Shown one piece after another: positions 52,852 through 64,000 of a DNA stretch of 64,000 nucleotides. A program made the position numbers and the translations under genes. The notes beneath the pieces are model-generated. The model saw nothing but the letters and a program-made list of their open reading frames with translations, had not been told where the DNA came from and did not search any database. The stretch is taken from positions 890-64,889 of the forward strand of contig CALEJW010000045.1 in the NCBI GenBank assembly GCA_937898635.1, given 5' to 3'. Every line of letters begins with the position of its first letter. Positions within the stretch are counted from its first letter, which is position 1. The stretch is from an uncultured Pseudomonadota bacterium (GTDB lineage Bacteria; Pseudomonadota; Gammaproteobacteria; Burkholderiales; Usitatibacteraceae).

Positions 52852-55800
52852 CTACGCGCCGTTCGCGACCGGCTTCACGCGGAACCACGCGGCATACAGG
52901 GCGGGCAGGAAGGCCAGCGTGAGCGCCGTGGCCACCACGAGGCCGCCCATGATCGCCACCGCCATCGGCCCGTAGAACTCGCTGCGCGTGAGCGGGATCA
53001 TCGCGAGCACGGCCGCGGCCGCGGTGAGCACGATGGGCCGGAAGCGGCGCACCGTCGCGTCCACGATGGCGTTCCACGGCTCGCTCCCTTCGCGGATGTC
53101 GTGCTCGATCTGGTCGACGAGGATCACGGAGTTCCGCATGATCATCCCGGCGAGCGCGATGGTGCCGAGCATCGCCACGAAGCCGAAGGGAACGCGGAAG
53201 GCGAGGAGCGCCGCGGTCACGCCGATCAACCCGAGCGGCGCGGTGAGCACGACGAGCGCCAGCCGCGAGAAGCTCTGCAGCTGGACCATGAGCGCGGTGA
53301 GCATGGCGAGCACCATCACCGGCGCGACGACGGCGATCGACTTCTGCCCCCTCGCGGAATCCTCGATGGCGCCCCCGGTCTCGATCCGGTAGCCGAAGGG
53401 CAGCTTCGCCCGGAGGGCCGCGAGCTTCGCCTCCACCTGCGTGCTCACCACCGGCGCCTGGATGCCGTCCTGGATGTCCGAGCGCACGGTGACGAGGGGC
53501 AGGCGGTCGCGGCGCCAGTAGAGCCCCTGCTCGAAGCCGGCGGTGAGCTCGGCCACCTGGGCGAGCGGCACGGTGCGCCCGCCGCCGACGGGAACCGCCA
53601 GGTCCTTCAGCAGGCCCACGAGCTGCCGCTCGCGCTCCGCGCCGCGCACCACCACGTCCACCTGCTTGTCCTTCTCCCGCCAGGTGGTCACCGCCTGGCC
53701 CGAGATGACCGTGCCCACGTACTGGGCGAGTTCCTGCGTGGACACGCCGAGCAGCCGCGCGCGCGACTGGTCCACGGTGAGGCGGATCACGCGGCTCGCC
53801 TCGTCCCAGTCGAAGTTCACGTCCCGGGTCCAGGGGTTGGCGCGCATCACGGCCGCCACCTCGTCGGCGATGGCGCGGATCCTCGCCTTGTCCTCGCCCG
53901 TGACGCGGAACTGGACCGGGAAGCCCACGGGCGGGCCGTTCTCGAGGCGGTTCACGCGGCCGCGCAGTTCCGGGAAGTCCGACTCGAAGAGCTCGAGGAG
54001 CCGCCCTCGCACGACCTCGCGCGAGGCGTTGCTCCTCGTGTTCACGATGAACTGGGCGAAGTTCGCGCTCGCGAGCTGCTGGTCGAAGGGCAGGTAGAAG
54101 CGCGGGCTGCCGCTGCCGACGTAGCTCACGAAGTTCTCGATGTTCTCGCGCAGCACGGGCTCGGTCGCGAGGATGCGCTCGAGCCTGCGCACCTGGGCCT
54201 CGGTCGCCCTCACGCTGCTGCCCTCCGCGAGGCGCAGGTCCACGATGAGCTCCGGCCGGCTCGCGGCCGGGAAGAACTGCTGCTGCACGAAGCGGAAGCC
54301 GAAGAGCGAGAGCGCGAAGACGGCGAGCGTGGCGCCGATCACCGTCCAGCGGCGCTCGACGCAGGCCTCGACCGCGCGGCGCAGGCGCCGGTAGAAGGGG
54401 CTCTCGTAGACCGCCGCCTCGTCGGCCGCGCCGCCATGGCGCCGCAGGTCGGGCAGGAGCCGGTAGCCCAGGTAGGGCACGAACACGACGGAGACGACCC
54501 AGGACACCCCGAGCGCGATCGTCACCACCGCGAAGATCGAGAAGGTGTACTCGCCCGTCGCGGAGCGTGCGAGGCCGATGGGCAGGAAGCCGGCGGCCGT
54601 CACGAGGGTCCCCGTGAGCATCGGCATGGCGGTGGAGGTGTAGGCGAAGCTCGCGGCGCGCACGCGCTCCCATCCCTGCTCCATCTTCACGACCATCATC
54701 TCCACCGCGATGATGGCGTCGTCCACGAGCAGGCCCAGCGCGATGATGAGCGCCCCCAGGGAGATCTTGTGCAGGTCGATGCCCGCCTGGTACATGAAGC
54801 CGAAGGTGACCGCGAGCGTGAGCGGGATCGAGAGCGCCACGATGAGCCCGGTGCGCAGCCCCAGGGACAGGAAGCACACCGCGAGGACGATGGCGACCGC
54901 CTCGGCGAGGGCGCGCGTGAACTCGCGCACGGAGCGCTTCACCGTCGCGGGCTGGTCGTTCACGCGGTCGAACTCGAGGCCGACCGGCAGCTGCGCGCGG
55001 ATGCGCTCGAGCTCGCCGTCGAGGGCGCGGCCCAGCGCGATGATGTCGCCGCGCGGGACCATGGAGACGGCGATGCCCAGGGCGTCCCGGCCCAGGAAGC
55101 GCATGCGCGGCTGCGGCGGGTCGGCGAAGCCGCGCGTCACCGTCGCGAAGTCCCCGACGCGGAAGAGGCGGCCGTTGGCGCGCAGCGGGACCGCCTTCAC
55201 GCTCTCCACGGAGTCGAGGGCGCCGCTCACGCGGATGTGGATGCGCTCCGCCGCGGTCTCGAAGCTGCCGGCGGAGGCGACCGCGTTCTGCTGCGCGAGC
55301 GCGGCGAAGACGGCGCGGGGCTCCAGGCCGGAGGTGGCGAGCTTCGCGTTCGCGATCTCCACGCGGATGATCTCTTCCTGCACGCCCAGGAGCTCCACCT
55401 TCGCGACGTCCTTCACCTGGAGCAGCTCGCCGCGGATCCGCTCGGCCGTCTCCTTGAGCTCGGCGTAGGTGAAGCCGTCGCCGGTGAGGGCGTAGATGTT
55501 GCCGAAGGTGTCCCCGAACTCGTCGTTGAAGAAGGGGCCCTGGATCCCCGAGGGGAGCTGGAAGCGGATGTCGCCCACCTTCTTGCGGACCTGGTACCAG
55601 GCGTCCTTGATCTCGTCGGGACGCGAGGAGTCCTTCACGAAGACGAAGACCACCGACTCGCCGGGGCGCGAATAGCTGCGCAGGTGGTCCAGGTGCGGCG
55701 TCTCCTGGAGCTTCTTCTCGATCCGGTCGGTGAGCTGGCGCTCCACCTCGTCGGCCGCGGCCCCCGGCCAGTTCGTGCGCACCACCATCACCCGGAACGT

Positions 55801-55932
55801 GAAGGAGGGATCCTCGGCCTGGCCCAGGCGCAGGTAGGAGCCCACGCCGATGGCCGCGAGGACCAGCATCGCGTAGAGCACCAGCGTCTGGTGCGAAAGG
55901 GCCCACTCGGAGAGGTTGAAGCGCCGGACCAT
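52852..55932 (-). CDS. RND efflux transporter inner-membrane subunit (AcrB family)
   Basis: 1026 aa. N-terminus FNLSEWALSHQTLVLYAMLVLAAIG. 12-TM, two-large-loop layout. ALGLLVDDAIIAVE motif. Confidence 0.93.
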   Translation of the reverse strand: MVRRFNLSEWALSHQTLVLYAMLVLAAIGVGSYLRLGQAEDPSFTFRVMVVRTNWPGAAADEVERQLTDRIEKKLQETPHLDHLRSYSRPGESVVFVFVKDSSRPDEIKDAWYQVRKKVGDIRFQLPSGIQGPFFNDEFGDTFGNIYALTGDGFTYAELKETAERIRGELLQVKDVAKVELLGVQEEIIRVEIANAKLATSGLEPRAVFAALAQQNAVASAGSFETAAERIHIRVSGALDSVESVKAVPLRANGRLFRVGDFATVTRGFADPPQPRMRFLGRDALGIAVSMVPRGDIIALGRALDGELERIRAQLPVGLEFDRVNDQPATVKRSVREFTRALAEAVAIVLAVCFLSLGLRTGLIVALSIPLTLAVTFGFMYQAGIDLHKISLGALIIALGLLVDDAIIAVEMMVVKMEQGWERVRAASFAYTSTAMPMLTGTLVTAAGFLPIGLARSATGEYTFSIFAVVTIALGVSWVVSVVFVPYLGYRLLPDLRRHGGAADEAAVYESPFYRRLRRAVEACVERRWTVIGATLAVFALSLFGFRFVQQQFFPAASRPELIVDLRLAEGSSVRATEAQVRRLERILATEPVLRENIENFVSYVGSGSPRFYLPFDQQLASANFAQFIVNTRSNASREVVRGRLLELFESDFPELRGRVNRLENGPPVGFPVQFRVTGEDKARIRAIADEVAAVMRANPWTRDVNFDWDEASRVIRLTVDQSRARLLGVSTQELAQYVGTVISGQAVTTWREKDKQVDVVVRGAERERQLVGLLKDLAVPVGGGRTVPLAQVAELTAGFEQGLYWRRDRLPLVTVRSDIQDGIQAPVVSTQVEAKLAALRAKLPFGYRIETGGAIEDSARGQKSIAVVAPVMVLAMLTALMVQLQSFSRLALVVLTAPLGLIGVTAALLAFRVPFGFVAMLGTIALAGMIMRNSVILVDQIEHDIREGSEPWNAIVDATVRRFRPIVLTAAAAVLAMIPLTRSEFYGPMAVAIMGGLVVATALTLAFLPALYAAWFRVKPVANGA

Positions 55933-55942
55933 GGGCGGCGCT

Positions 55943-57022
55943 TCAGCGCGCGGAGGGCGCGTCGGCGAGGCGCACCGGCTGGTCCTCGCGCAGCTTGTGC
56001 ACGCCGGCGGTGACGACGGTTTCGCCGGCGGCGAGGCCGCCGAGGATCGTCGCGCCATCCTCGCGGTACTCGCCGAGCTCGACCTTGCGCCGCTTCACCC
56101 GGGAGGTCTTCGGGTCGACGACCCAGACGGCGGCGCCGTCCGGCGCGCGCAGGAGCGCGGTGAGCGGAACCACCACGAGTGTTGCGTCGTCGGACGCGCG
56201 CAGCGCCACGGAAGCGCTCATGCCCACGCGGGCGCCGGGTGGCGTCTTCGCCGCCGAGACGCGCACCTTGAAGGTCCGCGTCACCGGGTCGGCGCCCCCG
56301 GCGATCTCGCGCACGCGGCCGGGGAAGAGCCGGCCGGGGTCGGCCCAGAGGAAGATTGCCACCTCCTGCCCCGGGCGCAGGCGCGCGACCTGGCTCTCCG
56401 GCGCGTCGATCACGACTTCCATCTCCCCGTCGCGCGCGAGGCGCAGGACCGGCTGGCCCGCGGCCACGACCTGGCCGGGTTCGGCGGAAACGGAGACGAC
56501 CACGCCGTCCGCATCGGCGACGAGCGTGGTGTAGGCCTCCTGGTTCGCGGAGATCGCGGCCTGGGACCGGGCCTGCTCGACGCGCGCGCGCGACGCGGAG
56601 AAGGCAGCCTCGCGCGCGTCGTGCGCGGACTGGCTGATGAAACGCCTCGCGAGGAGGTCCGTCGCGCGCTCGTACTCCGCCTGCGCGAGGGCGTGCTCGG
56701 CCTGCGCCGTGGCGAGTTGCGCGCGGGCGGCGTCGGCCGCGAGGGCGGCGTCGCGCGGGTCGAGTCGCGCGAGCGCCTGCCCGCGGGTCACCCGGTTGCC
56801 GGCGTCGGCGAGGCGCGCGGCGATCTTGCCGCCGATCCGGAAGGCGAGGTCCGTTTCCACGCGCGCGCGCAGTTCGCCGGAGTAGACCTCGCGCGTGGAA
56901 GCTGCGCCCGGCGCGACGACGGTCGCGAGGACGGGCCGGACGGGCTCGGCGGTGTCCCGCGGCCCGGAGCACGCGGCGAGCGCGAGGCCCGCGAGGAGGG
57001 CGCCCGGGAGTCGCCGGTTCAT
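55943..57022 (-). CDS. RND efflux periplasmic adaptor (membrane fusion protein)
   Basis: Lipobox LALAACS, coiled-coil region (LAADAARAQLATAQAEHALAQAEYERA) and beta-barrel/MP domains. Its ATG overlaps the TetR stop (ATGA). Confidence 0.9.
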   Translation of the reverse strand: MNRRLPGALLAGLALAACSGPRDTAEPVRPVLATVVAPGAASTREVYSGELRARVETDLAFRIGGKIAARLADAGNRVTRGQALARLDPRDAALAADAARAQLATAQAEHALAQAEYERATDLLARRFISQSAHDAREAAFSASRARVEQARSQAAISANQEAYTTLVADADGVVVSVSAEPGQVVAAGQPVLRLARDGEMEVVIDAPESQVARLRPGQEVAIFLWADPGRLFPGRVREIAGGADPVTRTFKVRVSAAKTPPGARVGMSASVALRASDDATLVVVPLTALLRAPDGAAVWVVDPKTSRVKRRKVELGEYREDGATILGGLAAGETVVTAGVHKLREDQPVRLADAPSAR

Positions 57023-57699
57023 CGCGGCCTCGCTTTCGCGGCCCGATCGCCCGGGCCGGCCGGGAAGCCGGCCCAGAGCGCGCGCAGGGCGCGCTCGATC
57101 TCGCGCTCGTAGTCGCGCCGGAAGAGGGCGAGCTCCGCGCGCTCCATCGCGCTCGCGAAGCGTTCGATGGGGTGCAGGAGCTGCCAGAGGCCGACGATGA
57201 GGCCGTAGCTGTGCTGCAGCAGGGTGACGCCCTCGCCGCGGCGCAGGCCGGGGAAGTGGCGCTCCAGGCCGGCGCCGGCGGTCGCGAGCGCCGCGGCGAC
57301 GCGGACCTTGAACGCCACGGCGGCCTCGGTGGGCACGTCCCGGTCCATGAAGCCGAAGCAGCGGCTGGACAGCGCGAGGTATCCGGGCGCGCGCACGAGC
57401 TTGTCGCGGGTGACGGTCCACACGGCGTCGAAGTCCACGCGGGCCTTGCCCTCGAGGGAGCGCATGAGCGCGCCGAAGAAGTGCTGCAGTTGCCGCTCGT
57501 GCAGCGCGAGCAGCATCTCCTCCTTGCTCGGAAAGTAGAGGTAGACGGTGCCCTTGGCGACGCCGGCGGCGGCCGCGACCTCGGCGACGCTCGCCATGCG
57601 GTCCGGGTGGGCGAGGAACAGGGCGTGGGCGGCGTCGAGCAGGGCGTGGTGGCGCTCGGCCTTGTCCTCGGCCGCGATGGCGCGATGCCTGGATGTCAT
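57019..57699 (-). CDS. TetR-family transcriptional repressor
   Basis: HTH MASVAEVAAAAGVAKGTVYLYFPSKEEM. GAGGG ribosome-binding site 6 nt before ATG 57699. First gene of the efflux operon. Confidence 0.9.
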   Translation of the reverse strand: MTSRHRAIAAEDKAERHHALLDAAHALFLAHPDRMASVAEVAAAAGVAKGTVYLYFPSKEEMLLALHERQLQHFFGALMRSLEGKARVDFDAVWTVTRDKLVRAPGYLALSSRCFGFMDRDVPTEAAVAFKVRVAAALATAGAGLERHFPGLRRGEGVTLLQHSYGLIVGLWQLLHPIERFASAMERAELALFRRDYEREIERALRALWAGFPAGPGDRAAKARPR

Positions 57700-57702
57700 A
57701 AA

Positions 57703-57747
57703 TGACCCTCGGTCAGGTGCTCCGGACGGTAAATGACCGCGGGTCAT
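57703..57747. promoter_or_regulatory. two TetR-type operator palindromes
   Basis: TGACC-CTC-GGTCA (57703-57715) and ATGACC-GCG-GGTCAT (57733-57747). They share the half-site (A)TGACC. Confidence 0.6.
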
Positions 57748-57877: not shown

Positions 57878-58609
57878 ATGAGTCGATCGGGAGAAGCGGA
57901 CGATCCGCGGCGCAGGCTGCTGGTCCAGGCGCTGGCGGCGGGCTTTTTCGGCGGGGGGCTCGCGGGGCGCGAGGCGCTCGCGCAACTGCTGGGAAGCGCT
58001 CCCTCGAAGCTGCCGCCCGGCCGGTCGATCTACCGCCTTTCCGGCGACGTGCAGGTGGACGGCCGTCCCGCCACGCTCGAGACCAAGGTCGGCGGACGCT
58101 CGACCCTCGAGACGGGCCGCAACAGCGAGATCGTCTACGCCGTGGGCCAGAGCGCGTTCATCCTGCGCGGGGAAAGCCGCGTGGTCCTGGAGACCGCGCA
58201 GTCCGATTCGCTCATCCTCTCGGGACTGCGGCTCCTGTCGGGCAAGATCCTCTCGGTCTTCGCCGCGCGCCGGCCCATGCAGCTCAAGGCCGCCACGGCC
58301 ACCATCGGCATCCGCGGGACGGGGGTGTACATGGAGGCCGATCCGGAGCAGACCTACTTCTGCACCTGCTACGGCGTGGCCGAGATCGCCTCGACGACCG
58401 ACCCGGAAAGCCAGGAAACGGTGGCGGCGCAGCACCACGACCGCCCGCTCTACATCGTGAAGGGCGCGCCCGCGGGCAGGAACATCCGCGAGGCGCCATT
58501 CATCAATCACACGGACCAGGAACTGATGCTGATCGAGGCGCTCGTGGGGCGCACGCCTCCCTTCGTCTTCCCCAAGAGCGACTACACGGGTCCGCGCCGG
58601 AACTACTGA
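57878..58609 (+). CDS. Tat-signal periplasmic protein with a FecR-like beta-rich domain
   Basis: DPRRRLLVQALAAGFFGGG is a twin-arginine signal. GDVQVDGRPATLETKVGGRSTLETGRNSEIVYAVGQSAFILRGESRVVLE resembles the FecR sensor fold. FCTCYG motif. Confidence 0.5.
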   Translation: MSRSGEADDPRRRLLVQALAAGFFGGGLAGREALAQLLGSAPSKLPPGRSIYRLSGDVQVDGRPATLETKVGGRSTLETGRNSEIVYAVGQSAFILRGESRVVLETAQSDSLILSGLRLLSGKILSVFAARRPMQLKAATATIGIRGTGVYMEADPEQTYFCTCYGVAEIASTTDPESQETVAAQHHDRPLYIVKGAPAGRNIREAPFINHTDQELMLIEALVGRTPPFVFPKSDYTGPRRNY

Positions 58610-58640: not shown

Positions 58641-60578
58641 TCACAGGGGGGCGCCGGCGAGGATCCAGTTCAGGAAGAGGTCGTATCCCGCGCGCGCCGG
58701 GTCCCCCGGCGCCGCGCTGGCGTCGAAGCCCGCGAGCTTGCCGCCGCTGTGGTGATTGCCCGAGGGCTTGCGCAGGAGCGGGCTCGCGGCGATGTCCGTG
58801 AAGTTGACCCGCCCGCGCACTTCCGCGTGGAACCAGGCGTCGTCGGTGGCGTCGCCCGCGATGGCGTCGCCGTTGCGGTCCGTGTTCGTGTAGAAGACCG
58901 GCGGGCGCGGCAAGGTCCCGGTCGGGCTGTGGCAGGTGGCGCAGATTCCCTGCAGCGTCGCCTTCACGTCGGCGAAGCGCACCGCGGAAGGTGCCGGGCT
59001 CAGGGCGGAATCCACCACGATCTTCAGCTGTGCCGGCGCGCTCTGCGCGGCGCCGTTCGTCGCGACGAGCTGCAGCACCCAGGTGCCGTTGGCCGGCGCA
59101 TTGAGCGTGGGATTCGCGGTGTTCGCGTCGGCGAGCGTGGCGCCCGCGGGACCGGAGACGATCGTCCAGGCATAGCCCGTCGCGTAGAGGCTCCCCGCGG
59201 CGCTCAGCGCGATCGCGCCCGGCCGCGCGACGCGGTCCGGGCCGGGATCGGCGACGGGACGCGTCCCCGGCATGGGCACGGCGCCGCCGGCGTCACGCAC
59301 CGTGTAACCCTCGCCCTCGAGGAAGGTGGCCAATGCCGCCGGCCCCGGCGAGCGCCAGAACGCGTCGAAGACGATCTTCGCGAGCGGCATGTTGCCGCGG
59401 TCCAGGACGTGGACCTTGGCGCGGTCGGCGAACTGGCGGAATTTCTCCCAGGTCGCGAAGTCGAGGTCCGACTGCGCGCCCGTGCCGCGCATGAGGTGGC
59501 AGGTGCGGCACGCGGGCGCGACGACCTCGTGGTAGAGCGTCGTCTGTCCCGCCGCCTGCCAGGAGGCCGGCACGAAGGTGTCGGAGAAGGTGGGCGAGGG
59601 CATCCCGTCGCCGCCGTAGAACGACTTGAGCATCGCCGCGGCGCTTCCCTGCCACTCCTGCGCGGCGGCGGGGCGCCGGCAGGCGTCCTCGGGGAGCGCG
59701 GACGGGGCCGGCAGGGGATAGGAGCACAGGATCATCTTGTTGATGGTCTTGATGGCCGCTTCCTGGTCGGCGCGGGTGAATCCCGGCATGGCGGAAAAAT
59801 CGAAGGCATCGACCTCGAAGGGATGCAGGCGCGCCTCGACGTCGCCGCGTGCCTGCGACACGGAGTTCTGGACGAGGTTGAAGCGGGGCTTCCCGGTCGC
59901 GTCGGGAGGCGTCAGCGCGTCCGCGCGCCCGCCGTGGCAGCTGATGCAGGGGCCGGGCATCGCCTTGGGACCCCGGCCATCGAGGTCCACGGCGAGCTCG
60001 CGCTCGCCCGTCTGCGCGTTGAAGTTGAAGAACTTCGCGAAGCTCGTCCCGCCCGCCGGCCCGGGGCTGAACTCGATGCCGTTCACGCCGATGAGGTGGC
60101 GAGAGTCGCGAACCACCGCGGCGTCGAGGTTGAGCGAGGTGTAGGTGTAGCCCGCGGCCGCCTCGACCAGGTAGTTCTCCACGAAGAAGGCGAGCGTTCC
60201 GTCGGCGTTCTGCCGCGCCGTCATCCGGCGCCCGTAGCCCAGGTCGCGCCGGTCGCCGAAGACCACGCTCACCTGCGTGCCGGCGCCCGTGTCGAATCCG
60301 TTGGCCGCCTTCCACTTCGCGAGCGTGTCCTTCGCGTTCGTGGGATCGATCGCGGCGTAGTAGGCCAGTGCGTAGGCGGTCGTGTCGGTCTGCAGCGTGC
60401 CGTCGGCCTGCTTCTGCGGGTTGGGGAAGAGCAGGAAGCTGTCGGGCCCGGAGGCGAGGGCGGGGGGCGCGGGGTTGGCCGGGCGGATGTCGCCCGGGCT
60501 TCCGCCCCCGCCGCAGGAGGCGAGGACGAGCGCCCCGGCGATGGCGCAGCCGAGGGCGGCGGGAAGGCTGGGTCTCAT
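58641..60578 (-). CDS. lipoprotein with three CxxCH haem-c motifs, an Ig/PKD-like domain and a planctomycete-cytochrome-C-like C-terminus
   Basis: Lipobox VLASC (Cys22). CISCH (59934-59948), CRTCH (59496-59510), CATCH (58929-58943). The C-terminus ...LLRKPSGNHHSGGKL...LFLNWILAGAP resembles PSCyt-type domains. Confidence 0.75.
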   Translation of the reverse strand: MRPSLPAALGCAIAGALVLASCGGGGSPGDIRPANPAPPALASGPDSFLLFPNPQKQADGTLQTDTTAYALAYYAAIDPTNAKDTLAKWKAANGFDTGAGTQVSVVFGDRRDLGYGRRMTARQNADGTLAFFVENYLVEAAAGYTYTSLNLDAAVVRDSRHLIGVNGIEFSPGPAGGTSFAKFFNFNAQTGERELAVDLDGRGPKAMPGPCISCHGGRADALTPPDATGKPRFNLVQNSVSQARGDVEARLHPFEVDAFDFSAMPGFTRADQEAAIKTINKMILCSYPLPAPSALPEDACRRPAAAQEWQGSAAAMLKSFYGGDGMPSPTFSDTFVPASWQAAGQTTLYHEVVAPACRTCHLMRGTGAQSDLDFATWEKFRQFADRAKVHVLDRGNMPLAKIVFDAFWRSPGPAALATFLEGEGYTVRDAGGAVPMPGTRPVADPGPDRVARPGAIALSAAGSLYATGYAWTIVSGPAGATLADANTANPTLNAPANGTWVLQLVATNGAAQSAPAQLKIVVDSALSPAPSAVRFADVKATLQGICATCHSPTGTLPRPPVFYTNTDRNGDAIAGDATDDAWFHAEVRGRVNFTDIAASPLLRKPSGNHHSGGKLAGFDASAAPGDPARAGYDLFLNWILAGAPL

Positions 60579-60589
60579 GCTCGGGTCCC

Positions 60590-63500
60590 CTAGAATCGCA
60601 TCAGGTACAGGATGGAGTACTGGTTCACGATGTAGCTGGAGATGCCCGAATTCTCCGGGCGCCAGAGCGGCGTGGTCTGGACCCGCCGCACCGAGAAGTC
60701 GATCGAGTCGCGCGGTCCCAGGGGCCGGTTGTAGCCGAGCGTGCCCAGGAGCATGCGGGCCTCGGCCCGGTAGGCGAAGTACTCGCCGCGGTCGAACGCG
60801 TCGTCGCGGACGAGGACCTCGGCGCTGTTCAGGTTCTCGAGGGAGCCCAGTCCCGAGGAGAACGTGTCGCCGCGCCGGTACTCGCCCGCGAGGTAGGCCG
60901 TGCCCGCCGCGCCCAGCGAGTAGTCGATGTTGAACTTCGCCGCCCAGTCGCGTCCCTCGAACACCGCGCTCTCGGCCCGGCGCCAGTTGGCCGCGACCTC
61001 GCCGAAGACGTCGATGCGGTCGGTGAGGGAGCGGCGCGCGTTGGCGCCGAAGGAATAGCGGCTGCCGCTGCGCAGGCGCGACTCGTAGCCGTCGATCCAG
61101 GCGCGCGCGAAGAGCGCGTAGGTGACGGAATCGAAGTCGCCCGAGGCCCGGTACTGCAGCTCTCCCTGGAGGCCGCCGGAGGTCCGGCCGAGGCCCGTGT
61201 GGTCGTGGAACTTGTCCACGCTGAAGAATCCCGTCGCGACCGCCCGCGAGTGCTCTCCCAGCGGGAAGGTGCGGCTCGCGTTGAGGCCGAGGCTGTAGAC
61301 CTGGTCGGAGAGCTTCTCGGCCGCGAGGCGACCGCGGCCCACGTTGTCGTCGAAGGTGTAGCCGATGTCCACGCCGACCGGTTCCGACAGCAGCTTCCAC
61401 GACCAGGCGTCCGGCCACGCGGGCAGGCGCCCGTCGAGGTCCTGCGAGAGGAGGAAGCGCACCGACTGGACCGTTCCCGGGCCGGAGAAGCGCTCGCCCT
61501 GGTAGTCGATGCCCAGGCGCAGGCCGCGCCGCCACAGGAAGTCGCTGCCGATCCCGAAGAGGAGCGAATTGCGGCTCGAGCCCGCCGGCGTCACCGAGTA
61601 GACGAGCCCGCCCGCCTGGTCCGCGTAGCTCAGGTTCGCGGCCCTGCCGCCGTCGAGCTCGCGCCGGAACTCGAGCCGCAGCCGCGGTGCGACCCAGCCG
61701 TAGTCGGTCTCGTGCCGGGTCTCCACCCGCAGGCCCGCCGCGGCCTGGGTGCTGCGCAGCGTCTGCTCGTGGAAGGTGAGGGCGTTCAGGCCCGCGCCGG
61801 ACTCGGTGGAGGCATCGAGGCGGTCCGAGGAGAAATCGACGCGGCCGTACGGGGAGATGAGGATGCCCTCGCGGCGCAGCTCGTAGCCCGCGGCGACGGA
61901 GCCGAAGACCTGCCGGCCCTTGCGCGTGCCGGTGGCGAACTCGTCCAGGGATTCGACGTAGCGGTCGGAATCGAGGTCGAGGGAGCCGAACCCGAGCACG
62001 GCGTCGACGAAGGTCGACGGCGTCGGCTGGTAGCTCCCGTAGCCCGCCACGAACGTGCCGCGGGCCTTGCTCCGCGAGCCGTCGCTGCCGATGTCGGTGC
62101 GGTCGCGGCCGTAGCCCAGGCCCATCCCGAGCACCAGCCGGTCGGAGAAGCGCCGGTCGGCGCCGAGGCTCAGGCCGTCGGTGCTGAAGCGGATGTCCGC
62201 GCCTTCATCGCCGGCGCCTCGCTTGCCGAAGTGGGCGAGCCCGCCCAGCCAGACGTTGGTGCCGGGGCGCAGCCCCCCGGATCCCCCGCCGTTCGTGCCG
62301 GCCGAAAGGTCGATCGTGTTCGACGTCGCCGCGCTCACGAGCGAGCCTGCGAGGATCGATTGCAGGAACCCCGCCGGCGCCGCGGGCCTCGGGCCGGCGC
62401 CGCCGGCCGTGAGGGAGACCGGCAGGAATCCGGACTTCGCCAGCGCATTGCCGAACGCGAACGGGTCGGCGGCCGCGTCCCGCTCGCGGGCCGTGGACGG
62501 TGCGGCCCTCGGCGCGGCGGCGGCCTTCGGCGCGCCGGCAGCCTCGGGCTCGGCCGGGGCCGGCGGCCCGGCATGCAGGGATTCCAGGCGGCGCTGGAAG
62601 TTGGCGATCTGCGCGCGCGAGAAACGGCGCGCCGTGCGCGCCTGCGCGTCGACGAGGCCGACGACGTTGCGGTCCTGCGCCGGGTCGGGCCGGCCGACCA
62701 CGTTCACGGTGACGAGTCCGGGCTCGGAGGTGCCCACGTTGCCGAATGCGTTGTAGGTGAACGAGTCGGCGCCGAAGAAGTCGCGGCGCGGCGTGTAGGT
62801 GACCTTCGTGCCGTTCACGCTGACCGTGCCGTGGGCCGGCGCCTTCGGGATCGAGACGCCGGTGACCCCGGAGCCGGTGATGAACGGCCGCAGGTCCATC
62901 GTCGCCGGCGTGTTGAGCGCCACCGTGAGGGTGGCCGCGGCCGCCGAGGGCTTCAGGGACGCCACGGTGAGGTTCACCGTGCCCGTCATGGAGGTGCCGC
63001 CGGCACTGGTCGCGGTGAAGGTGAAGCTGTCGGCGCCCGAGAACCCGGTGGCCGGCGTGTAGGTGACCTCGCGCGACCCGGGCGGCGGGGTGGATACGAG
63101 CCCGTTCGCCGGCAGCGTGACGATCGTCACCTGCGTGAAGGTTCCCGAGATGGGCAGCGTGATCGGCGTGGCCGTCTCGAAGGGCACGTTCACCTGGAGG
63201 TCGGCCGCGCCGGGCGCGGGAGGATTCACGGTGATCGTGACCAGCCCCGGGACGGAGGTGCCGCCCGGACCGGACGCCGTGACCTGGAAGCTGTCGGGGC
63301 CGAAGTAGCCCGCGCGCGGCGTGTAGGAAAGGCTGGTTGGCGTGACCGCTAGCGTCCCGTTCGCCGGGGGCGAGCTGATGGCGAAGCTGGTGACGAAGCC
63401 GGAGATGAGGCGGGCGAGGTCGATCGGCGTGGTGGTCTCGTACGGGACCACGACGGCGATCGGGTTCGCGACCGGGGCATCGGTGTAGTTGAGCGTGACC

Positions 63501-64000
63501 GTCGCCGGCGCGGAATTGCCCCCCAGGCCCGTCGCCTGGTAGGTGAAGGTGTAGCGGCCCGTCGCGCCGGGCGAGGGCGTGTAGGTCGCGATGAACCCGG
63601 CGATGGAGACGCTTCCCGCGGCGGGCGGAGAGACCACGGACACGCTCGAGAAGACGCCGCTCACCGCGAGCGACAGGTCGATCGGCGTGGTGGCGGTGGA
63701 CGAGACGAGCACGTTGATCGGCCCCGCCGTGGGCGGCGGCGGCGCCGACACGGTGACGGTCACGGTCGCCGAGCCCGAGGTGCCGCCCGCGTTGGTCGCG
63801 GTGTAGGTGAAGCTCGCCGGGCCGACGTAGCCGGCCGTGGGCGTGAAGGACACCGTGGTCGGGCCCGTGGCGACCACGGCGCCGTTGACCGGGCCGGAGG
63901 GCGTGACGGCCAGGACGGTCGCGCCCGGAGGGCCGATCAGGGCGGCGAGGTCTATGGTCGTGGAAACGACCGGCGCGCCGCTGTTGAACGGCACGGTGAC
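60590..64000 (-). CDS. autotransporter-type outer-membrane protein (5' end outside window): tandem Ig-like passenger repeats, linker, canonical autotransporter barrel, extra C-terminal barrel-like module
   Basis: Passenger repeats (see repeat feature). Linker RFSRAQIANFQRRLESL. Autotransporter beta-domain VWLGGLAHFG...STDGLSLGADRRF...GIDYQGERF (61436-62260). A further 281 aa follow (60593-61435), ending YSILYLMRF*. Confidence 0.8.
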   Translation of the reverse strand, partial: VTVPFNSGAPVVSTTIDLAALIGPPGATVLAVTPSGPVNGAVVATGPTTVSFTPTAGYVGPASFTYTATNAGGTSGSATVTVTVSAPPPPTAGPINVLVSSTATTPIDLSLAVSGVFSSVSVVSPPAAGSVSIAGFIATYTPSPGATGRYTFTYQATGLGGNSAPATVTLNYTDAPVANPIAVVVPYETTTPIDLARLISGFVTSFAISSPPANGTLAVTPTSLSYTPRAGYFGPDSFQVTASGPGGTSVPGLVTITVNPPAPGAADLQVNVPFETATPITLPISGTFTQVTIVTLPANGLVSTPPPGSREVTYTPATGFSGADSFTFTATSAGGTSMTGTVNLTVASLKPSAAAATLTVALNTPATMDLRPFITGSGVTGVSIPKAPAHGTVSVNGTKVTYTPRRDFFGADSFTYNAFGNVGTSEPGLVTVNVVGRPDPAQDRNVVGLVDAQARTARRFSRAQIANFQRRLESLHAGPPAPAEPEAAGAPKAAAAPRAAPSTARERDAAADPFAFGNALAKSGFLPVSLTAGGAGPRPAAPAGFLQSILAGSLVSAATSNTIDLSAGTNGGGSGGLRPGTNVWLGGLAHFGKRGAGDEGADIRFSTDGLSLGADRRFSDRLVLGMGLGYGRDRTDIGSDGSRSKARGTFVAGYGSYQPTPSTFVDAVLGFGSLDLDSDRYVESLDEFATGTRKGRQVFGSVAAGYELRREGILISPYGRVDFSSDRLDASTESGAGLNALTFHEQTLRSTQAAAGLRVETRHETDYGWVAPRLRLEFRRELDGGRAANLSYADQAGGLVYSVTPAGSSRNSLLFGIGSDFLWRRGLRLGIDYQGERFSGPGTVQSVRFLLSQDLDGRLPAWPDAWSWKLLSEPVGVDIGYTFDDNVGRGRLAAEKLSDQVYSLGLNASRTFPLGEHSRAVATGFFSVDKFHDHTGLGRTSGGLQGELQYRASGDFDSVTYALFARAWIDGYESRLRSGSRYSFGANARRSLTDRIDVFGEVAANWRRAESAVFEGRDWAAKFNIDYSLGAAGTAYLAGEYRRGDTFSSGLGSLENLNSAEVLVRDDAFDRGEYFAYRAEARMLLGTLGYNRPLGPRDSIDFSVRRVQTTPLWRPENSGISSYIVNQYSILYLMRF
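62696..64000 (-). repeat. five or more tandem ~87-aa (~260-nt) Ig-like passenger repeats
   Basis: Each unit reads roughly xxVxVxxxTxTPIDLxxxxSGxxTSxxIxSxPxxGTxxVxGTxVTYTPxxGFxGxDSFTYxAxxxGGTSxPxTVTxxV. Boundaries are near residues 84, 172, 259, 348 and 433 of the visible ORF. Confidence 0.85.

Follow-up and report, generated by a model that had tools for sequence, protein, structure and literature searches.

At the end of a 64,000-nucleotide stretch of contig CALEJW010000045.1 (below, the window), which comes from an uncultured bacterium of the Usitatibacteraceae, lies the gene of an autotransporter that does not end with its translocator barrel (barrel 1), as the same reading frame goes on to encode another predicted outer-membrane barrel (barrel 2). 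Our interpretation, to which we give a probability of about 80%, is that a classical autotransporter was fused in frame to the N-terminus of an independent barrel 2 and that the product is a genuine two-barrel outer-membrane protein. The open reading frame (ORF), listed with 1134 aa, occupies positions 60590 to 63994 of the reverse strand, is uninterrupted, and is closed by a TAG stop at 60592-60590. Upstream it is stop-free to the window end at 64000, so that the 5' end of the gene runs off the window and the N-terminus is truncated. The window DNA has about 72% G+C and contains long spurious ORFs in every frame. The coding frame was therefore identified by its G+C content at third codon positions (GC3), which was 0.96 in each of the three parts (passenger, barrel 1, and barrel 2), compared to 0.50-0.69 in the other two frames.

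The first-pass annotation of this DNA had described an autotransporter β-domain (61436-62260) continued in the same frame by an extra 281 aa (60593-61435) with the look of a barrel. All the peptides it quoted were found in the ORF translation, and its limits agree to within a few residues with the AlphaFold2 model, in which barrel 1 spans aa 578-852, the linker aa 853-872, and barrel 2 aa 873-1133. The positions of all the features are collected in Table 1.

Two predicted barrels in one chain

That the first part is a canonical autotransporter β-domain was confirmed by a full-length match to PF03797 (Autotransporter beta-domain; aa 581-832, model positions 1-255 of 255, E 6e-46, 157.7 bits with a cut-off of 26), and the autotransporter barrel model TIGR01414 matched aa 440-837 with 49.4 bits (cut-off 16). 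In the AlphaFold2 model of the last 596 residues, the strands of barrel 1 correspond to query residues 40-314 and are preceded by a candidate pore-spanning helix at aa ~545-558 (nt 62321-62362; query residues 7-20), which has a low predicted local distance difference test score (pLDDT). The combination of 12 strands and a preceding pore helix, typical for type Va, is thus present in the predicted structure, and both the sequence and the predicted fold identify barrel 1 as a genuine type Va translocator. A further type Va hallmark, a barrel that forms the C-terminal end of the chain with a terminal aromatic β-signal, is absent: the chain continues past 'TVQSVRFLLSQD', the last strand of barrel 1, and a complete barrel follows in the same ORF. 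Such a non-C-terminal position of barrel 1 was also found in at least 151 homologues. Within aa 1-440 the passenger gave five Big_9 matches (E 1e-40) and four Cadherin_5 matches in Pfam, together with the tandem-95 repeat of NCBIfam. The full-length orthologue in locus L007 has 1670 aa with a signal peptide, and clear signal peptides are also present in many other full-length homologues.

The last 281 residues had no family match in Pfam or NCBIfam at E <= 1, and separate profile hidden Markov model runs on the two parts matched PF03797 in the first part only, in line with the earlier view that the second module stands outside the recognisable families. Searches of the Protein Data Bank (PDB) by sequence, with barrel 2 as a single sequence or as a profile, gave nothing usable, and neither did those with the passenger plus barrel 1, the lipoprotein, or the FecR-like protein encoded next to it. 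DUF2490 (PF10677) was considered as the family of barrel 2 and rejected: its matches in P0167 and P0170 fall inside barrel 1, and its 7 matches in the barrel 2 alignment equal the number of members of that alignment that include autotransporter sequence. The predicted structure, in turn, bore out the claim that the extra region is a barrel. Modeled alone with an alignment of 56 sequences, the 281-aa region gave a mean pLDDT of 92.4 and a predicted template modelling score (pTM) of 0.85 and formed a closed barrel of 12 long antiparallel strands. Short turns (4-8 residues) connect the strands on one side, and the opposite side has two longer loops of ~14 and ~22 residues. The strand set ends in the β-signal NQYSILYLMRF. 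Foldseek against PDB returned exclusively outer-membrane barrels of a generic 12-14-strand kind, whereby the best E-value belonged to the EstA autotransporter barrel and the best template modelling (TM) score, ~0.6, to the 12-stranded COG4313 channel, followed by NanC/KdgM, OmpG, and CymA, none of them specific.

The model of the last 596 residues (pLDDT 85.5, pTM 0.68) consists of a helix, 12 strands, a linker, and 12 more strands, i.e., two 12-stranded barrels with a low-confidence link of ~20 aa, which supports the two barrels assumed at first pass. Its best structural matches were 12-stranded autotransporter barrels, with target-normalised TM scores of 0.81-0.82 for NalP and BrkA and 0.69-0.81 for EspP, and the root-mean-square deviation (rmsd) of most of these superpositions was 3-4 A over ~290 columns. 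EstA and AaaA also ranked at the top, their target-normalised TM of only ~0.4 being relative to the full-length chains. The 22-stranded TonB-dependent receptors fitted poorly (TM ~0.2, rmsd ~17 A). Since the best matches are to 12-strand barrels and those to 22-strand ones are poor, one chain is predicted to form two separate 12-stranded outer-membrane barrels.

The linker between the two strand sets has a pLDDT of 52-74. It opens with the motif (S/K)(D/E)LDG(K/R)G (61418-61438 of the reverse strand, aa 853-859 in the window), which is kept in essentially all fused homologues directly after the last strand of barrel 1 ('QAIRFWL' in these proteins). Between this motif and strand 1 of barrel 2, 'VRVEAGYTxDDN', lie ~15-20 variable residues. 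The motif may serve as a turn, for docking, or for processing.

Table 1. Features of the two-barrel autotransporter gene and its surroundings, in window positions
Feature	Position	Strand	Remarks
Passenger, part inside the window	62675..64000	(-)	aa 1-~440; tandem immunoglobulin (Ig)-like repeats; gene extends past the window end
Pro/Ala-rich spacer and predicted pore-spanning α-helix	62321..62674	(-)	upstream of barrel 1
Barrel 1, type Va 12-stranded β-domain	61439..62263	(-)	aa ~578-852; PF03797, AlphaFold2, Foldseek
Inter-barrel linker	61379..61438	(-)	aa ~853-872; predicted periplasmic; ~20-30 residues
Barrel 2, predicted 12-stranded outer-membrane barrel of an uncurated family	60593..61378	(-)	aa ~873-1134; AlphaFold2, Foldseek
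Predicted outer-membrane lipoprotein	58641..60578	(-)	645 aa; lipobox LASC with Gly at +2; three CxxCH; PKD-like domain
FecR-domain protein	57878..58609	(+)	243 aa; convergent; twin-arginine-like N-terminus (DPRRRLLVQALAAG); CxCYG and HHxRP motifs
TetR regulator	57022-57747	(-)	with the next two genes, window 52855-57747
HlyD-type membrane-fusion protein	55946-57421	(-)	position of the ORF
AcrB-type resistance-nodulation-division (RND) pump	52855-56058	(-)	

Spread and origin of the fusion

With both barrels as a joint query, at least 151 proteins were retrieved at E <= 1e-30, and almost all of them cover 98-100% of the query at 43-77% identity. These two-barrel homologues are typically 800-990 aa long, carry Big_9/Cadherin_5 passengers, and are named only as 'autotransporter domain-containing protein'. 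For the module alone, 171 homologues were found. A profile search of barrel 2 against 1.84 billion representatives (clusters at 50% identity) yielded 1,148 representative clusters at E <= 1e-3 and 303 at E <= 1e-30, and in every match listed the module was at the extreme C-terminus. About two thirds of the top 150 clusters are proteins of 630-2,457 aa and about one third are proteins of 283-398 aa. Many barrel 2 homologues are indeed ~310 aa long with a signal peptide of their own.

The genomic setting was compared in 85 loci, 80 of them from species-representative genomes and 5 further ones, among them a few duplicates; they come from metagenome-assembled genomes of Betaproteobacteria. As to the question of one ORF or two genes, raised at first pass, both states occur: 58 loci are fused in frame, 20 are stand-alone, 5 are ambiguous (frameshift or contig end), and 2 are partial, and among the 56 aligned fused homologues the junction lies in one continuous frame in all 56. 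No signal peptide was seen in the linker across this alignment. The closest relatives belong to Usitatibacteraceae (87% identity), and others to Casimicrobiaceae, Gallionellaceae, Sideroxydans, Rhodoferax, and Nitrotoga; each of the 80 loci bears either a label of the Betaproteobacteria type or an evidently wrong one. The latter bins (L026, L032, L039, L045, L048, and L076) are titled 'uncultured Enterobacteriaceae', 'Streptomycetaceae', 'Streptomyces sp.', 'Lysobacter sp.', and 'Bordetella parapertussis', and look like taxonomic misassignments.

None of the 20 stand-alone loci has an autotransporter barrel within +-8 kb, and their products have plausible signal peptides. Before strand 1 these proteins hold only the signal peptide and a Pro/Gly-rich stretch of up to ~60 residues. 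Barrel 2 is therefore an independent unit of an uncurated family, which elsewhere has its own gene, the first in a conserved cassette. An in-frame fusion is the simplest history, because the stand-alone gene occurs in the same cassette without an autotransporter nearby and the junction lacks a signal peptide. Such an event would have exchanged the signal peptide of barrel 2 for a whole autotransporter. In a neighbour-joining tree of barrel 2, calculated without support values, the fused and stand-alone forms interleave in several places, which tentatively suggests repeated fusion or fission.

An important question is whether the fusion is real or results from a lost stop codon or a frameshift, introduced during assembly or sequencing between two genes that are in fact adjacent. 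Stand-alone barrel 2 genes exist in other lineages, and the closest database protein, P0001 (81% identity), was called as a separate 313-aa gene, both in agreement with such an error. P0001, however, had to be discarded as evidence for two genes: its contig is rich in split genes and its N-terminus keeps the end of barrel 1 ('GTSQAIRFLLSQDLDG'), so that it is a frameshifted copy of the fusion. Apparent stand-alone database 'proteins' that start inside barrel 1, of which P0001 is an example, are due to frameshifts that break the fused gene. The close relatives L006-L013 (72-87% identity) read through in frame, as do the 58 fused loci overall, the linker has a conserved motif and lacks a signal peptide, and GC3 is uniform across the junction. 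Conservation of the junction and codon statistics together exclude the missed stop or frameshift that had been suspected, and an artefact is extremely improbable. Another view accepts the fusion and lets both halves form a single large barrel of ~24 strands. Tandem barrels that were engineered can do this, and Solan et al. (PMC8346858) bring it up as a caveat for such chains in general. Against this view stand the closure of barrel 2 on its own at a pLDDT of 92 and its existence as a stand-alone secreted protein in 20 loci. Moreover, half of the model superposes on 12-strand autotransporter barrels, with TM ~0.2 for the 22-stranded ones, and a variable low-confidence linker of ~20 aa parts the two strand sets. 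We consider a single merged barrel very unlikely and retain the fusion of two separate barrels.

Frameshifts that break the fused gene were seen in three loci, namely L001 (ERZ25039554 contig_43498, the source of P0001), L026, and L030; in L001, the genes of MoeA and an RND pump are also split.

The conserved cassette and the passenger head

Two further genes belong to the cassette. The most constant is that of the FecR-domain protein, present in ~74 of ~82 loci, usually in convergent orientation, and accompanying both the fused and the stand-alone barrel 2. The window copy is 57-63% identical to the neighbours of a stand-alone (L002) and a fused (L004) barrel 2, and the CxCYG motif is present in 68 of 70 copies. 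Its match to PF04773 is weak (E 6e-4), its homologues are named 'FecR domain-containing protein', and the family counts at least 3,806 of them. The anti-sigma and transmembrane parts of a true FecR are missing from this protein. In the nearest relative, the FecR-domain protein is more conserved than barrel 2 (93% versus 87% identity).

The lipoprotein gene stands between barrel 2 and the FecR-like gene, 11 to ~100 bp after barrel 2. In the window it starts 11 bp past the autotransporter stop, an arrangement that suggests co-transcription or translational coupling of the two. Of the 62 classified loci in which the downstream sequence was long enough, 45 contained the lipoprotein (37 of the 49 fused loci, 8 of the 13 stand-alone ones). 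The window copy is 64% identical to the product of the gene after the stand-alone barrel 2 in L002; among 46 homologues, exactly three CxxCH motifs were counted in 45 and a lipobox in 40. Pfam gave no significant family assignment for the lipoprotein; the matches obtained were a K319L-like PKD domain (E 5.5e-7) and weak Cytochrom_C/CBB3 matches over a C-terminal cytochrome-like segment.

Across the loci, no other broadly conserved neighbours were found beyond the FecR-domain and lipoprotein genes. The CHASE2 cyclase of L002, the trypsin/PDZ gene of L004, and the TetR/RND genes of the window were dismissed as parts of the system, being common to close relatives only; the TetR, HlyD, and RND genes adjoin the cassette and are syntenic only in such relatives. 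In L004, a 388-aa gene that precedes the fused one was tried as a replacement for the lipoprotein and showed no similarity to it. In a scan for promoters and terminators around the cassette, sites were no more frequent than expected by chance.

Among the fused loci, the type of passenger covaries with the presence of the lipoprotein. With a lipoprotein, the proteins are 1,300-2,300 aa long, with one shorter exception of 838 aa (L076). In most passengers of these loci that have an intact start, the signal peptide is directly followed by Cx(2-4)CH, after which come a conserved '(R)xNAAN' and a Met ~35-45 residues further on (L007:3831-8843, L009, L011, L015, L018, L019, L021, L024, L032, L038, L040, L049-L051, L055, L057, L059-L061, L072, and L073). 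In the closest complete orthologue, L007 (87-88% identity), this head reads 'FDTSCGGCHTAGSGEP'. Five of seven heads compared with Pfam had sub-threshold matches to PF13442 (class-I cytochrome c), and 4 of these span most of the model; the autotransporter passenger may thus bear a mono-haem head. The fused loci without a lipoprotein form a separate clade of 810-1,045 aa proteins with short passengers that start with a signal peptide followed by 'AECGGxxQCI(A/G)V...AHHG', including a conserved cysteine pair (L004, L023, L027-L029, L031, L033, L039, L042, L045, L047, L054, L071, and L075, and also P0130-P0234).

Proposed working and relation to known systems

From the topology and the established biology of autotransporters and the β-barrel assembly machinery (BAM), the following course can be proposed. 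The chain would be exported by Sec, as the signal peptides of the orthologues indicate, and both barrels would be inserted by BAM. With an even number of strands, each barrel would start and end in the periplasm, leaving the linker periplasmic. Barrel 1 would translocate the Ig-like passenger by way of a last strand that is internal rather than C-terminal, and barrel 2 would keep its ancestral role in partnership with the lipoprotein and the FecR-domain protein of the periplasm. As a result, a long surface array of Ig-like repeats would be tethered 1:1 to that outer-membrane complex. Such tethering would fit the idea of Solan et al. (PMC8346858) that adjacent barrels of complementary function become joined.

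As for the role of this complex, the three haem-binding motifs of the lipoprotein, the Tat-like (twin-arginine translocation) signal and Cys/His motifs of the FecR protein, and the Cx(2-4)CH head of the passenger tentatively point to an outer-membrane redox or metal-handling module, which is our best guess, held with low confidence. A more specific proposal makes the two-barrel protein the outer-membrane core of a cytochrome-linked surface system that has so far gone unrecognised in Betaproteobacteria, among them the iron oxidisers Gallionellaceae and Sideroxydans. Here, a mono-haem cytochrome c head would sit on a long Ig-like stalk, and the tethered barrel 2 would dock the tri-haem lipoprotein and the Tat-exported FecR-domain protein. 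In this full form the proposal is speculative and rather unlikely.

A different function follows if barrel 2 acts as a translocon like Slam (type XI secretion) and flips or exports the lipoprotein encoded directly downstream to the surface, the autotransporter being a second display device; the first-pass annotation had likewise thought of the Slam/DUF560 type, because of the size of the module. Of all Pfam families, only PF04575 (SlipAM) gave any matches to barrel 2; these recur in a consistent register, with E 0.005 and 16.9 bits for the family consensus, 18.3 bits for the best member (P0203), and matches in 6 of 56 members. The lipoprotein gene closely following a small outer-membrane barrel in 45 of 62 loci also resembles the pairing of Slam with its cargo (PMC5449769). 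All these scores are nevertheless below the gathering cut-off of 22 bits, the barrel 2 of the window is unmatched at E <= 1, and weak matches are to be expected, since similarity at the level of hairpins is common to all outer-membrane barrels. Slam consists of a 14-stranded PF04575 barrel and a periplasmic tetratricopeptide repeat (TPR) domain of ~140 aa (PMC8406197), whereas barrel 2 has 12 predicted strands, its stand-alone forms are without a TPR domain, and its fused forms have the autotransporter in that place. Moreover, about a quarter to a third of the loci have no lipoprotein gene, whereas the FecR-domain gene is nearly universal and, in contrast to Slam, is the most constant neighbour of barrel 2. 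Finally, the known Slam cargo has a C-terminal 8-stranded barrel (10.1101/2024.09.26.615229), and this lipoprotein ends, according to weak matches, in a cytochrome-like segment. Membership in the Slam family is thus not supported by strand number, domain content, or PF04575 scores, and a Slam-like role is improbable.

Returning to the fused two-barrel protein and its possible redox function, several points weigh against them. The two-barrel fold is deduced from AlphaFold2 models and Foldseek matches, and the pTM of 0.68 makes the relative placement of the barrels in the two-domain model uncertain. Whether fusion or fission took place, and how many times, is judged from the unsupported neighbour-joining tree. 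The functional reading is circumstantial, as no match to a haem-domain family of Pfam reaches its threshold; the window's own passenger head lies off the window, beyond 64000; and between about a quarter and a third of the loci, a whole fused clade among them, lack the lipoprotein. Secretion of a covalently haem-loaded domain by the autotransporter pathway would also be mechanistically awkward.

Compared to the multi-barrel outer-membrane chains predicted computationally in 2021 (34 architectures and 186 families; Solan et al., PMC8346858), the protein has the same general plan. On the predicted structure, it contains two complete barrels that close separately and are joined by a linker, whose length is within the 22 +/- 13 residues given there. 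Here, too, a lineage-specific fusion, restricted to one phylum, unites barrels that also exist singly. That set includes the 12-12 types PLA1-PLA1 and YjbH/GfcD and, as a fusion of different barrels, PagP-LptD; the partners here differ in being an autotransporter translocator and a barrel of an uncurated family. The main text of PMC8346858 names no multi-barrel family that contains an autotransporter, and it mentions an unnamed 12-12 'MB-family 012'. The two-barrel autotransporter fits this predicted class and may already have been listed among its families. The literature searches found nothing that specifically describes an autotransporter carrying a second barrel or a cytochrome as its passenger, and a Pelobacter genome paper mentioned autotransporters and cytochromes only separately.

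With the type Va proteins NalP, EspP, BrkA, and EstA, the chain shares the full PF03797 domain, the predicted 12-stranded barrel after a pore helix, and the N-terminal passenger. It differs in that the β-domain is not C-terminal, with a linker and another complete barrel coming after it, and in that the passenger consists of Ig-like (Big_9/cadherin-like) repeats, whereas the usual type Va passenger is a β-helix.

Fused cytochrome-porins of the Cyc2 type and the porin-cytochrome conduits MtrCAB/MtoAB are found in iron-oxidising and iron-reducing bacteria. The resemblance is that the orthologue chain also joins an N-terminal CxxCH to outer-membrane barrels, with a multi-CxxCH lipoprotein encoded alongside, and that the barrel 2 family occurs in Gallionellaceae and Sideroxydans. 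However, no sequence relationship to these systems was detected, a barrel of 12 strands has too little room for a cytochrome, the haem motif is separated from the barrels by Ig-like repeats that amount to more than 1,000 residues, and the putative haem domains here are indicated by motifs and sub-threshold matches only.

The present findings add a sizeable uncurated family of predicted 12-stranded outer-membrane barrels with a conserved set of partners. A translocator barrel at the C-terminus defines the type Va autotransporters, and in models of how they assemble, the first step is the engagement of BamA by the C-terminal β-signal. A large natural family, with hundreds of sequence clusters, in which the autotransporter barrel is internal and a complete barrel follows, breaks this definition. 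It would offer a natural experiment on how BAM handles tandem barrels and on whether passenger secretion needs a free C-terminus. The family would be a well-populated example for the prediction made in 2021, and, because fused and separate states coexist among relatives, it is ideal for asking what the fusion brings. If the cytochrome-linked surface system were real, it would be a new kind of trans-outer-membrane redox or electron-transfer device and also a natural test case for the assembly by BAM of an autotransporter with an internal β-signal, and, should the cytochrome hints hold, the abundant Betaproteobacteria of soil and freshwater would possess an unexplored outer-membrane redox system.

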